Shown one piece after another: positions 41,201 to 47,200 of a stretch of 64,000 nucleotides of DNA (the stretch's first letter is position 1; every line of letters begins with the position of its first letter). Source of the stretch: Heptranchias perlo (taxonomy: Eukaryota); the NCBI RefSeq assembly GCF_035084215.1, contig NC_090350.1:37386001-37450000 (forward strand), given 5' to 3'. Both the position numbers and the translations under genes were made by a program. Under the pieces are notes generated by a model that saw nothing but the letters and a program-made list of their open reading frames with translations, was not told the DNA's origin and made no database searches.

Positions 41201-44200
41201 CCACCCTGTGTCTAATGTTCATAACTGCAGCTTCCTTTGGCAATATTTACTTGCAGCAGAGAAATTGGAAGGAAACAGGTATTTTTTTAAAATCAGGGAA
41301 AATAAAACTGCATGCAAGAAGAAACAAAACCAGCACAGGAAAGGGTACAGAAATGAGGAAATAAAACAGAGGGGCAAGAAAATCCAATGAAACAAACTAA
41401 AAATGAAACATGGGGGAAGGTGGTAGATGAGGGGGAAATTTAAAGTTCGTTCTAGCACGGTCACATTTTAAAACATTTGCTGCAAATCTCTGGACCAGTA
41501 ACATTTTGCTGTGAGGGCCAGTGGATACTGAACCTGGACCAGTAATCGTGAAAAGAACATCTGGACACTTAGTGAATATCAATGCCAAACTGTTCTTCAT
41601 TAGCGTCTTCAACAAAGATGCTGCTTGTGAAAGGGAAACACTACAACCTCACTGTACTCGTCCTCTAACTGGTGTCTGCTCAGCAAGAGGGTCAGACTAT
41701 GGGATTGATTGTTGTACAAAAGCTAACTGAGTGCCACAATCAATCACAGGTTGAACCCCTTTCATTGAGAACATGCGAATAGGCCAAAACATGAGGATAC
41801 ATGTTTTGCAACCAACTCATAAAAACAATGAAATAATCTGTTCACATTTACTCAAACCCAGCCATTGTCAAAACAAGGAAACTGCTTGGCCCATTGTTTT
41901 AACCTCACTATTAATTTTCACATCTAAGTAGTTACAACTTCAAGTCACAGGGATACTGGACATCCAGCCACTCATGAATCTCCCACAAGGCCTTCAGGTG
42001 GGGCACCCACTGGAAGTAAAGTTTCTCATTGGAGACATAAACTTACATTGTCTCGCCGAGGCAAATGCGCCCCCTGTCAGCAGAACATGGAACAGCACTG
42101 ATGATTGTAGTCGTGGAGAAGTCCTTGGCTCTGTCCACCCCATCCTCCTGGCTGAAGGAATATACCCGGAAAGGAGAGGCCTTGAGCAGGAAGAGGCATA
42201 TTCCCATGATGCACTGAGCCAAATAAGCATAATCAGTGCATTAATGAGACAGTTCCAGTAAAGATCCTTACAACGAACAGGAACTCTATTTGGCCAGCAC
42301 GGCAGATGTTAGGCCCATTGCTTTAGAATTAACTTTTCAATTTTTTTTTTTCCTTAAAAAATAATCTTAAGCAACTGCCAAGATAAGAATTTCAGGTTTG
42401 TAGCAGAACATTTTTCCATATATATTTTATTTCAAATTTCCAAACAACAATGTATTTTTACCCGAATAGTTTTATACATTATACTGTAACTGTCAAACAT
42501 AGTGGTACTGAGCCATTCAGACCAGGAAGGTCCCAGATTCAATCTCAGTCTGTCTTGAGTCAGCTAATCTGAGCCAGGGGTACAGTCAGGGTGCTTTTAA
42601 GTAGCCTCCCTAGTTAGAGAGGGGAAAAATCAGCCAAGGTTTTCCACTCCTAATCACTACCCAGTGCCTCTTGCTGGAAAGCGTGTGCGCAGACGACAGG
42701 ATTGTGCTCAGCTGGGGTGTCCCCACGATTGAACAGCCTGCCACCACTCATTGTCCAGGTTCACACATTATGAATACCTACTTGGGTGAGATACCATTGG
42801 GTGGCTGGTGCCCAAGGAACTGCAGTGCAGTCAGTGACTTCAGGAGAAATAGGAAAAAGGTTGGATAAAAAGGGGGAAAATAAATTGTCAAACGCAAAGG
42901 CACTTTTTATATATGAACATTAATTCTCATTTCACAATGGAAGTTCCGCCATCCTACACCAGAACAGTGTAGGTTGCACAATAGTCCTGTAATAAACTGT
43001 TCCACTACTGGTGCATACGAATGTTCATGAGCCACCAGTGGTGACATGAAATCAATATGATGAACAGAAACAGATTTTTACAACTCCATGCAAAATAATG
43101 GTTAACATCTCTGTTATATCGATTTTCTGTCAGTGGGTGCTTGAATATATTTCAGAAACAAACAGTGGCCCAGATTTTCCTGCAACGGCGAGATCAGTGG
43201 GGTACACCATGAATCTTGCTCATCTATTGCTTCAATTTCGCAGTTGATAACTTCCTCCATATTTTCATGCGTTTCTAATTAGAATACGTCGCAACGAGCA
43301 TAGCGGCAAACGAGAAGCGGTGCAGCCAATGGCCAATGTTTATCTCAACTTTTAGTACTTGCGAGTAATGACTAAACATTGGGACGTAATAGAGTACCTG
43401 GCTGTACACTGGGCACAAAGTTTCATGCTATGTGGTCTTATTGTGACAGGTTGGAATTGCTAATGAAAAGGACAAAAATATTTTTTTAAATTTTCTAACG
43501 TACCCACTCTGAGTCCCTTGCCAAAGACTGTTCTTTCCCCGAGTGCAGAGCAGTTCCAGCGGCCGTATCGGAACTGAAATTGATACTCGTTGATACCCAT
43601 ATGAACTCCTTCTCCAACGTCGGCAGTGGGGTGACTCTGAGAACTCGCCTGCTGACGAGGCACCAGCCCTGATATTTTGCTGCAGAAGGAGCTCAAATGG
43701 GAATCAACGAGTATCAATTTTAGTTCCGATACGGCCGCTGGAATTGCTCTCCACTAGAGCTAAGAGCTGTCTTTGGCAAGGAGCTCAGGGAGGGTACGTT
43801 AGAAAATAAAAATAAACTGTCCACTTCATTATCAACTTCAATTTGTCACAATAAGATCACCGCATAGCAGGAAACTTTGTGCGCTGCCTGCCCCAGTTTG
43901 AGCTATATTGTTGCCATAAAGATTTTCACCATGATGGTAATCCAATTGGGGTCGTTACTTTCCGATTTATAAGTAAATCTTTTGTTTGATTTGAAATAAA
44001 TGATAACAACACAAAGCAATTTATCACAGTTAAATATCGAATGGATGCTTTGAAATAAATCAGACTTTTTGTAAGTTACCGGGAGCTAAGCAAATTCCCC
44101 AACTGGGAAACATGAGGAACCTATCTAGGAGCAATAAATCATGCTGCTGCCAGGCCACCAAAGCCATTATTTTTAAATCAATGTGACTTTAATCCAGGAA

Positions 44201-47200
44201 AATGCCGATCGCCATTGATTTCAATGGCAGAGGGGCGGAGTATAATAATTAACTGTTTTAGGCGAGGGTAATGGTGAAGCAGCATAAAGGTCCCAGGAAA
44301 ATATGGCGAGACATAATTAATGGCATAAGTCACTTATTCCATAATATCCTTAATCTTTTGCGCCTTTCACGTGTCCCTATGTCATAGAGGTTCAAGTCCC
44401 CAGTAAAATCTGGGCCAGTGCATTTAGGGTATTTTTTCGAATGGTTTAAAGAGGGAGTAATACCCAATGAACATCATGTCAGAGGTCACGTTGTTGTATA
44501 GCTGTATAGTGTTATAGTGAAGGTCGACAGCAATCAATAACTTAGCTTGGGAACATGTATGGGAAATTCTGCTTGCCTGTGTGAAATGGCTTAAGATTTA
44601 CACATCCAATCAATCTTCATTCACCCAAAAGTTGTGATCATGTATTCCATATTCTCATAAAAGACTATTGAAGCCGAGTTGATCACAAAATTTAAGGGGG
44701 TATTAAATAAACACATAAAATATTAAAGGCTATAGGTAAAGGGCAGAAAAATGAGATTAGAGTAGAAAGCTCCGATGTGGAACTAGAACCAGCACAGATA
44801 TTTTGGGTGAAATTACCTCCTTCTGTGCTGAAATTTTTATGAATTAGAAAGGCATTTCTTTTTAACATAGAATCATAGAAAGATCTGGAATCACAGAAGG
44901 AGGCCATTCGGCCCATCGTATCCATGCTGGTCGAAAAGAGCTATCCAGCTTAATCCCACTTTCCAGCACATGGTCCATAGCCTTATAGGTCACGGCACTT
45001 CAAGTGCACATCCATGTACTTTTTAAATGAGTTGAGGGATTCTGCCTCTACCACCCTTTCAGGCAGTGAGTTACAGACCCCCCCCCACCCTCTGGGTGAA
45101 AACATTTCTCCTCAGCACCCCTCTAATCCTTCCACCAATTACTTTAAATCTATGCCCCTTGGTCACTGACCCCTCTGCTAAGAGAAATAGAGTGGATAGG
45201 GAGAACATATCTAATCCCGTCATAATTTTATATACCTCAATTAAATCTCCCCCCAGCCTATCCAATCTTTCTTCATAGCTAAAATTCTCCAGTCCTGGCA
45301 ACATCCTCGTAAATCTCCTCTGTACCCTCTCTAGTGCAATCACATCCTTCCTGTAATGCGGTGACTAGAACTGTACTCAGTACTTTAGCTGTGGCCTAAC
45401 TAGTGTTTTATACAGTTCTAACATAACCTCCCTGCTCTTATATCCTATGCCTCGGCTAAAAAAGGAAAATATCCCGTATGCCTTCTTAACCACCTTATCT
45501 ACCTGTCCCGCTACCTTCAGTGATCTGTGGACATGCACTCCAAGGTCCCTTTGTTCCTCTACACCTCTCAGTATCCTCCCATTTATTATGTATTCCCTTC
45601 CCTCATTTGCCCTCCCCAAATGCATCGCCTCATACTTCTCCGGATTGAATTCCATTTGCTACTTTTCTGCCCACCTGACCAGTCCATTGATATCTTCCTG
45701 CAATCTACAGCTTTCTTCCTCACTATCAACCACGCGGCCAATTTTTGTATCAAACATATATTGAGAGCACATGGGAGCGAGAATGAGAGTGAAAGTAAAA
45801 GAAAAAAATGATGGGACCCATAGACAAAAAAAAGGTACTGAGAGTGGGACGCTTCGCTATGGACTGCTGTTTTCCAACTGGTTTGTTTTAATATACTTTC
45901 TAAACTGTACCTCAAACTGTAATAGCCTTTCATTTTACCATAAGAAAACATACAGATCAACCAAGGTACAGTGTCACAGAAAGCACATGTGTAAGGTTTG
46001 ATCACAACTTTGTTTGGACATCGAAGAGACATGTTTTCACATACCTTCCAGAGCATCATCTCCTACTTCTTCATAATTCTGCAAACAAAACAAATAATGT
46101 GTAAATGAGTGTTTTTATTTCAAAAGCTGCACTTGCCAACATACTGCATGTTACTTTTACCCTCTGCCACCTCTCTACACAAAATGCATTTTAAATGATG
46201 CTATCAATGGTAATTTGAAAGGCACAGAGGCCCATGTGAATTTGTTACCATTAATTTAAAAGCAAAATAACTGAATGATTTCATCATCAGGAGGGAGAAG
46301 CTCTGTATGCAAGAACTATTCAGCAACAAAGCTATCTAGGTGGTCAAGCTTTGTAGCTGTTACAAAACCTCTAGAGAGGATCAAGGGGGTAGTGGAACCA
46401 CGAAATAACAAAAGGAAAAAAAGTACATCAATTTGAGCAGGAGAAAGACTTGGAGCATAGTGGCTGAATGAGGCAGATAGTTTCAGCCCAATTCACTGCA
46501 AAACACTTCATCTGTAATCACAGAAGCATTCAACTAAATTTACATTGTCCGTATGCTTAACAGCCACAATGAAGGCGCTTTGTTAGAACTTAATTCCTCC
46601 TAACCAAAATGTATAGAGAATGCACAACAGAATACTAAGCCCACAAAGATGTAGGAGATTTCAAAGTGCTCTCCATATTTAACACAGACCGCACTAAATA
46701 AAGATACGATGGAAGAAAATTTGCCTCTTCTATTTCTTACCATAACTGCTGTATCAACAAGATACTTGTTACGAAGCTGTTTAAATATGGGACTCACAAG
46801 CAGGGTCTATACAGCTCGCTCATACTTGCTGCACTCACAATTCACTCAGCCTCCCAATTATGGAACAACGTCCATATTGAACAATTGGTCATCAAATAGC
46901 TTCAATTTATAAACGGTGGTTTCATAATTTCAAATTGCTTCAATGTAGACCTTTTTTCACCCTCAATTCTTAACACAAGGTGCAGGAGTAGATAGCTGGG
47001 GAGAACTACCATGAGGCAGGTAGGAAGGACAAGAGCAACAAGAGGCTTCTACTTTCGTGAAAATTAAGCAGAGGGCTTACATAGATGTTACAAAATATTC
47101 TGTGTAGGACACATTTGACTGCAAGACAAGTAGGTTGGCTTTCATGAGATTTGTCGAACATAATGTAACATAAATACAAACCATGGGGGGGGAGGGGGGG

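Follow-up and report, generated by a model that had tools for sequence, protein, structure and literature searches.

How did part of a Wnt7 gene come to lie in an intron of another gene, and does it do anything there? The question is raised by a 64,000-nucleotide stretch of the Heptranchias perlo genome (NCBI RefSeq assembly GCF_035084215.1, contig NC_090350.1, positions 37,386,001 to 37,450,000; hereafter the window), in which a 1250-bp element at 43167-44416 sits in an intron of a TRNAU1AP-like gene. In our judgment the element is very probably a copy of a non-coding DNA transposon, likely of the non-autonomous PIF/Harbinger kind, which is present at least 22 times and carries part of Wnt7 exon 2 together with intron 2 sequence. 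An inverted copy of this piece likely arose by template switching in an ancestral element and then likely transposed, and the copies are likely decaying without function.

The element is bounded by 16-bp terminal inverted repeats (TIRs) at 43167-43182 (plus strand) and 44401-44416 (minus strand), complementary at 15 of 16 positions. A search of the window for this terminus with up to two mismatches returned these two matches only, where 0.07 were expected, and none of 100 shuffles reached two. AGT flanks both ends (43164-43166 and 44417-44419, plus strand) as a target-site duplication (TSD). The 1250-bp segment that the original prediction had delimited by its inverted termini and AGT repeat is thus real. 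Similarity to Wnt, whose extension past the TIRs had been named beforehand as grounds for rejection, is confined between them.

The captured piece on the minus strand matches the Pfam wnt family (E=6e-9). Its exon part stops at 43504 and is followed by GTACGT, with the GT of this phase-1 donor at 43503-43502. Only the 3' ~190 nt of the 227-nt exon 2 are present, without a splice acceptor; the piece starts at exon position 37-40, and in the window positions 39-227 lie at 43504-43686. Similarity to intron 2 extends for ~110 bp in the window (43391-43503, to ~43391) and for up to ~140 bp in another copy. The proposed Wnt7 exon 2, ending at a phase-1 GT donor and running on into about 90 bp of intron, was therefore right in identity and donor, but the exon is partial and the intron stretch somewhat longer. 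Compared with the gene, the exon in the window has a 6-nt in-frame deletion and 13 amino-acid changes, including the loss of two cysteines.

A Wnt family search identified two Wnt7 paralogues in this genome, on C20 and C21, with near-identical exon-2 peptides. Of their second introns, only that of the C20 gene matches the intron part of the element (local scores for the minus-strand piece of 320 versus 197 for the C21 paralogue). Because the last exon of the C20 gene scores higher against human Wnt-7a (332 bits versus 319 bits for C21), the donor is regarded as wnt7a-like. It lies on a different chromosome from the window, its exons 2-4 are intact, and no family ends were found in the 20 kb around its exon 2. 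The majority sequence of 22 aligned arms (as we call the Wnt pieces) departs from the C20 gene at 6 of 186 sites, each of them a third position, which indicates that copying ran from gene to element. Since intron 2 is retained and matches one paralogue, a spliced mRNA template is excluded. On these alignments the fragment was captured at the DNA level from the wnt7a-like C20 gene; retroposition, which the original prediction had also disfavored, is ruled out by the retained intron.

Searches of the 3.25-Gb genome, which give lower bounds and whose loci were deduplicated by place by hand, located the Wnt piece at at least 22 distinct loci on 14 contigs. Both family ends are present at 12 of these, one end at eight, and neither, in the DNA examined, at two. 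The left end spans ~172-185 bp (43167-43350 in the window, plus strand) and is common to elements with other interiors, and the right end spans ~300 bp (44117-44416, plus strand). The 5' breakpoint (exon position 37-40) is common to the copies, as is the internal chimeric order, but their flanks are unrelated and their TSDs differ. This establishes the multicopy, TIR-bearing family that had been predicted. The ends travel together across copies, so they do belong to one another and not to unrelated insertions.

Among 19 distinct full-length family copies (a set in which two copies were added and one adjusted by hand), seven have an exact 3-bp TSD, compared with 1.63 expected (shuffle p=0.00025), and none has a 2-bp or 4-bp duplication. 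A later sample, with three loci overlapping the first, gave exact TSDs in 3/8. Four of eight Wnt-bearing copies with both TIRs have TSDs: AGT (L001), AAT (L086), ATT (L082), and AAG (L012, where the TIR is degenerate). The consensus of the duplicated target is ANT. Weighing against the preferred account, 12 of the 19 full-length copies have no exact TSD.

The Wnt piece might instead have been filled independently into gaps in already inserted MITEs (miniature inverted-repeat transposable elements), without transposition, or the loci might be segmental duplicates or retrocopies. Most TIR elements with captured host DNA (Pack-TIRs) in animals are single-copy products of gap filling, according to the part of the published survey used here (PMC8277862). 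We nevertheless consider this the least credible of the alternatives, and very improbable, given the shared 5' breakpoint and chimeric order, the unrelated flanks, the distinct TSDs, and the location of copies on contigs other than the donor's; for retrocopies, the intron excludes a spliced template. Amplification by transposition is thus preferred. Separately, related Harbinger-like MITEs are nested within Wnt-bearing copies (L003:2122-2816; also L006 and L078).

To which superfamily does the transposon belong? PIF elements are described, in the portion of the source consulted, as two-gene elements with ~15-bp TIRs and 3-bp TSDs (PMC9710019). The 16-bp TIR and 3-bp TSD of the family agree with these lengths, and the TSD is not the 8-11 bp of Pack-MULEs. 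The genome also contains autonomous relatives. Specifically, a first look returned 34,316 candidates for DDE_Tnp_4, and three delimited autonomous Harbingers of ~4.15 kb have TIRs GGGCTCGATTTT, with TSDs of ATT/ATT and ATG/ATG in two of the three; the one scanned encodes its transposase and a Myb/SANT protein on opposite strands. Two findings weigh against the assignment. No autonomous partner with these subterminal ends was found among the 36 transposase loci tested from the 34,316 candidates, the sole match being 68 bp (E=0.009). In addition, the ANT consensus differs from TWA, which is given as the Harbinger target in the section consulted of a recent preprint (bioRxiv 10.64898/2026.05.26.728016). 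Because the genome's own Harbingers have ATT and ATG duplications, we take TWA to be typical and not defining.

A Pack-type TIR transposon of another superfamily with 3-bp duplications, such as CACTA/EnSpm, or of an unclassified group would account for both the missing partner and the ANT target. CACTA elements carry the terminal signature CACT. The termini here start with GGCCC, the ~15-bp TIR and 3-bp TSD fit PIF, and the autonomous Harbingers in this genome have similar TIRs along with ATT/ATG TSDs; another superfamily therefore appears improbable. The family is likely PIF/Harbinger, judged by TIR form and TSD length, so the superfamily first proposed stands on these features but lacks a cognate autonomous element among the 36 loci. 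As observations on the autonomous elements themselves, L158, L159, and L160 are young autonomous Harbingers of ~4.15 kb, L158 and L160 are 98.9% identical, and part of a second copy lies upstream of L158. Among the best transposase matches, many have open frames of ~500 codons, and the superfamily may be recently active.

Beyond what had been described earlier, the window element contains an inverted duplication and a second, likely captured piece. The Wnt fragment occurs twice, head to head, in arms of ~200 bp: arm A on the minus strand (43686 to ~43391) and arm B on the plus strand (43681-43882). Arm B consists of exon positions 115-227 (43681-43793, with stops inside), followed at 43794-43882 by a GT donor with ~88 bp of intron 2. 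The 64-nt spacer, or loop, between the arms (43617-43680) is the unduplicated 5' part of the exon piece. Downstream, 43901-44078 (plus strand) is the remnant of the second piece, which matches C13:52.036 Mb. The arms are 17% apart, and a short-read DNA contig, from a run possibly of the same sample as the assembly, covers 43166-44157 without differences. Divergence and contig together rule out an assembly artefact: the fold-back is real and old.

Comparison across loci reveals three structural types. Type A copies (for example, L012, L009, and L013) have a single long arm and, after it, a segment, X. Type B copies retain exon positions 37-149 only and have a different middle, consistent with deletion between two CTGAAA-like words. 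In type C, which comprises the window, L006, and L002, ~150 bp of X are replaced by the inverted 200-bp arm. The fold-back structure is thus common to two other loci; the distal junction is the same in all three, and both junctions show 2-3 bp of microhomology. Weighing against transposition of the hairpin as a unit, arm A is missing from L002, and in L006 it is shorter and neither end is present; because these copies are incomplete, such transposition is deduced from the shared junctions only. At another locus, L078/L143 (C8:34.80 Mb, type B), ~110 bp of the element's own left end are inverted inside its right part, a second independent inverted-copy event.

A history that fits these structures would begin with a short element with fixed ends that gained the wnt7a-like exon/intron piece and the C13-matching piece, as the type A copies display. 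Both pieces may have been copied from CpG-rich loci on other chromosomes by template switching during repair or replication. The variant structures suggest that type B then lost the 3' exon and intron between the CTGAAA-like words, its middle being swapped for a C10-matching piece, and that type C exchanged ~150 bp for the inverted Wnt copy. Each variant would have been amplified in trans by a Harbinger transposase with its Myb/SANT protein, leaving 3-bp ANT duplications. The copies have since diverged to their present state, ~11% at non-CpG sites.

Is the element under selection where it now sits? The host gene has its exons on the minus strand of the window, and we presume it to be TRNAU1AP from peptide motifs in those exons. 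Splicing was read from assembled contigs of four runs presumed to be RNA, all from one sample; such contigs drop rare forms. In all four runs the GT..AG intron at 42214-46044 (minus strand) is spliced out whole, with joints from 46045 to 42213 and from 42047 to 38231. These joints include a 167-nt cassette exon (42047-42213, minus strand) that shifts the frame, introduces a stop 30 nt ahead of the last junction, and would put another sequence in place of the conserved C-terminus; the exon has no match among the other loci examined. A direct 46045-38231 joint, the exon-skipping form, occurs in one of the four runs and is shallower (depth 65 versus 225). Because of the extra exon, the intron that houses the element is the second-last in the commoner splice form, and its earlier description as the last intron holds for the minor form only. 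No joint splicing the Wnt donor site into the host gene is among those listed, in contigs that drop rare forms, so exonization was set aside. Contigs from these runs do not cover the element, which is evidence neither way on its transcription. Elsewhere in the window, a long frame at ~55700-56100 (minus strand) is likely the host gene's first coding exon, and a GC-richer tandem array at ~33300-34560 gives long repetitive open frames on both strands.

Overall, the Wnt-bearing copies look like neutral relics. They are 16-29% apart, and their tree is star-like. At non-CpG sites, divergence from the majority, pooled over copies, is 0.113 per silent site (pS) and 0.110 per replacement site (pN), or ~11% for both classes, and the equality of these rates indicates neutral decay. 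Two properties of arm A weigh against this view: it is stop-free and of all copies the closest to the gene (16%), and its pN/pS relative to the majority is 0.52 (8 silent and 14 replacement changes), a value not different from that of other copies (p=0.32). Coding constraint on the window copy was considered and rejected, as its raw ratio of replacement to silent change relative to the gene (dN/dS 0.29) is largely explained by silent changes on the gene's own lineage. Searches of the genome returned no near-identical copy, the best long match being ~79%, and the family is therefore likely inactive; from these comparisons we regard it as probably dead. The idea of a mobile family spreading a developmental-gene fragment is thus borne out for the multicopy spread, but that spread is ancient and not ongoing.

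The fold-back may nevertheless have been kept for a function. A hairpin transcribed from the TRNAU1AP intron, or from the other strand, could yield small RNAs or double-stranded RNA (dsRNA) acting on wnt7a, or could affect splicing of the cassette exon. The predicted fold is very stable (-300.6 kcal/mol, z=-28); its longest unbroken helix is 48 bp when the plus strand is folded and 22 bp in the host-gene sense. Stretches of 29 and 20 nt in the arms still match the wnt7a exon perfectly, the intron is transcribed, and arm A is the least diverged copy. Folding of this kind is, however, expected of any 200-bp inverted duplication. The distance between the arms (0.17) is at the low end of, but inside, the copy-to-copy range (mean 0.24, minimum 0.16 over 36 pairs). 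They have three derived sites in common, while five other pairs have five, and with no excess of such sites, gene conversion or selection keeping the arms alike is unsupported. Moreover, Rfam gave no match for the element, spliced contigs skip it in all four runs, and the related copies L003 and L007 have lost arm B through larger deletions. Given the surviving perfect matches to wnt7a, a hairpin RNA may be made, but its retention for function seems quite unlikely, and decay without function remains the preferred account.

What else has the family carried? The 43901-44078 segment, and all of X in type A copies, match the C13:52.036 Mb site, which has no element ends, at 72-76%. This site is ~5 kb upstream of a coding exon of the EamA family (Pfam scan), from a gene that we take to be SLC35G2-like. 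It keeps CpGs that are often lost in copies (a C4 copy, for example, retains 2/11, with 8 as TG/CA). The middle of type B matches another site without element ends, which lies next to a CpG island at C10:35.789 Mb; six-frame translation of the island gave no Pfam match. No family ends were found within 10-20 kb of the C20, C13, or C10 sites. Two points count against reading these sites as donors: the C13 site lacks two stretches that copies have, and the sequences matched on C13 and C10 (72-80%) could themselves be element fragments left by truncation.

The left end has 322 first-look candidates in the genome, of which the 40 scored have 75-81% identity over most of the query. The best 30 left-end matches fall into 19 interior clusters, some of whose singletons may be flanking DNA or nested insertions. 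Each of four interiors searched is multicopy; those of L015, L030, and L250 (L272) have 40, 52, and 35 matching pieces in the genome. Unrelated interiors between the same ends were also noted at L020, L029, and L243-L271. Scanned against Pfam in six frames, candidate donor regions and other interiors gave nothing over the cut-off in 36, 12, and 84 translations, and another interior had no PDB match, so Wnt7 is the only proven gene fragment. A likeness of one interior to eS27 (E=0.14) was dropped as weak, the genome search having failed to confirm it.

Flanking DNA with a CpG observed/expected ratio of at least 0.5 was found for 7 of 15 matches that are end-less in the DNA examined, versus none of 23 full-length element flanks (Mann-Whitney p=0.002), in a comparison whose threshold and list were picked after the data were seen, which includes the Wnt7 donor, and in which some end-less matches are surely truncated copies. 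On balance we lean slightly toward a genuine link between the cargo of this family and CpG-rich donors. Family ends turned up at several candidate donors, which were thereby recognized as element copies. Candidate end-less donors in CpG-rich DNA were observed at L282 (C4:92.79 Mb), L235 (C18:63.59 Mb), and L232 (C1:74.40 Mb).

How does the family compare with known systems? The part of an animal survey used here reports 370 Pack-TIRs in 100 animals, with 21 PIF-Harbinger rows (frogs, alligator) and none in elephant shark; four cases (1.4%) in reference genomes are multicopy, including a frog example with three copies and Ssk-FB4 with four (Tan et al. 2021, PMC8277862). As presented in these sections, gene capture by animal TIR elements is almost always a single-copy repair accident, and the supplements searched have no Wnt entry. 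The hallmarks of Pack-TIRs are present in the Wnt7 family: an interior that is not transposable-element sequence, a parental copy with no family ends around it, DNA-level capture, and several loci with distinct TSDs. Like the multicopy cases in that material (Pack-hAT-N8_XT and Ssk-FB4), it is a TIR element with host DNA from a donor far off or on another chromosome, with the same chimeric structure at distinct TSDs and short breakpoint microhomologies, and the survey's template-switch-then-transpose model fits (PMC8277862). It stands apart from those cases in its copy number of at least 22, in falling into three structural subfamilies, in having two or three likely donors for each element, and in the fold-back inside it. 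Vertebrate Pack-TIRs were thus already known and multicopy ones are rare; the Wnt7 family is a rare multicopy capture of a gene fragment in an animal.

Rice Pack-MULEs, in the text consulted, favor GC-rich donors and have TSDs of 8-11 bp (PMC5861414). The Wnt7 family resembles plant Pack-MULEs in having one pair of ends around many interiors, and their preference for GC-rich donors parallels the CpG-rich end-less matches here; it differs in its 3-bp TSDs and 16-bp TIRs, where Pack-MULEs have 8-11-bp TSDs and long TIRs, and in having Wnt7 as its one proven gene fragment. With PIF/Harbinger MITEs, as far as the descriptions consulted go, it has in common a TIR of ~15 bp, a 3-bp TSD, no coding capacity, and autonomous two-gene elements in the genome. 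Its interior is host DNA, however, and not a deletion derivative of an autonomous element, and its TSD consensus is ANT. Maize Mu killer is an inverted-repeat silencer. Like it, the window element is an inverted duplication in transposon DNA from which host transcription could produce a hairpin RNA; in this element the duplicated stretch comes from a host gene, its two arms have diverged by 17%, and the hairpin RNA is a prediction. We found no description of the family in the open-access literature; it may be in Repbase or Dfam, which lay outside the search, as an unannotated Harbinger-N. A bolder proposal is that this Harbinger family is the vertebrate equivalent of Pack-MULEs, sampling CpG-island DNA from different chromosomes, with the fold-back subfamily a mobile hairpin that would direct dsRNA or small RNAs against wnt7a from the TRNAU1AP intron; we consider this combination improbable.

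One transposon family, then, multiplied a Wnt7 exon/intron piece at least 22-fold and reshaped it in successive rearrangements, and it appears to carry many other interiors. A predicted consequence is that spurious Wnt7 pseudo-exons will appear in annotation. Should the link to CpG-rich donors be true, the family would be a vertebrate system resembling Pack-MULEs, in which mechanisms of capture could be tested.

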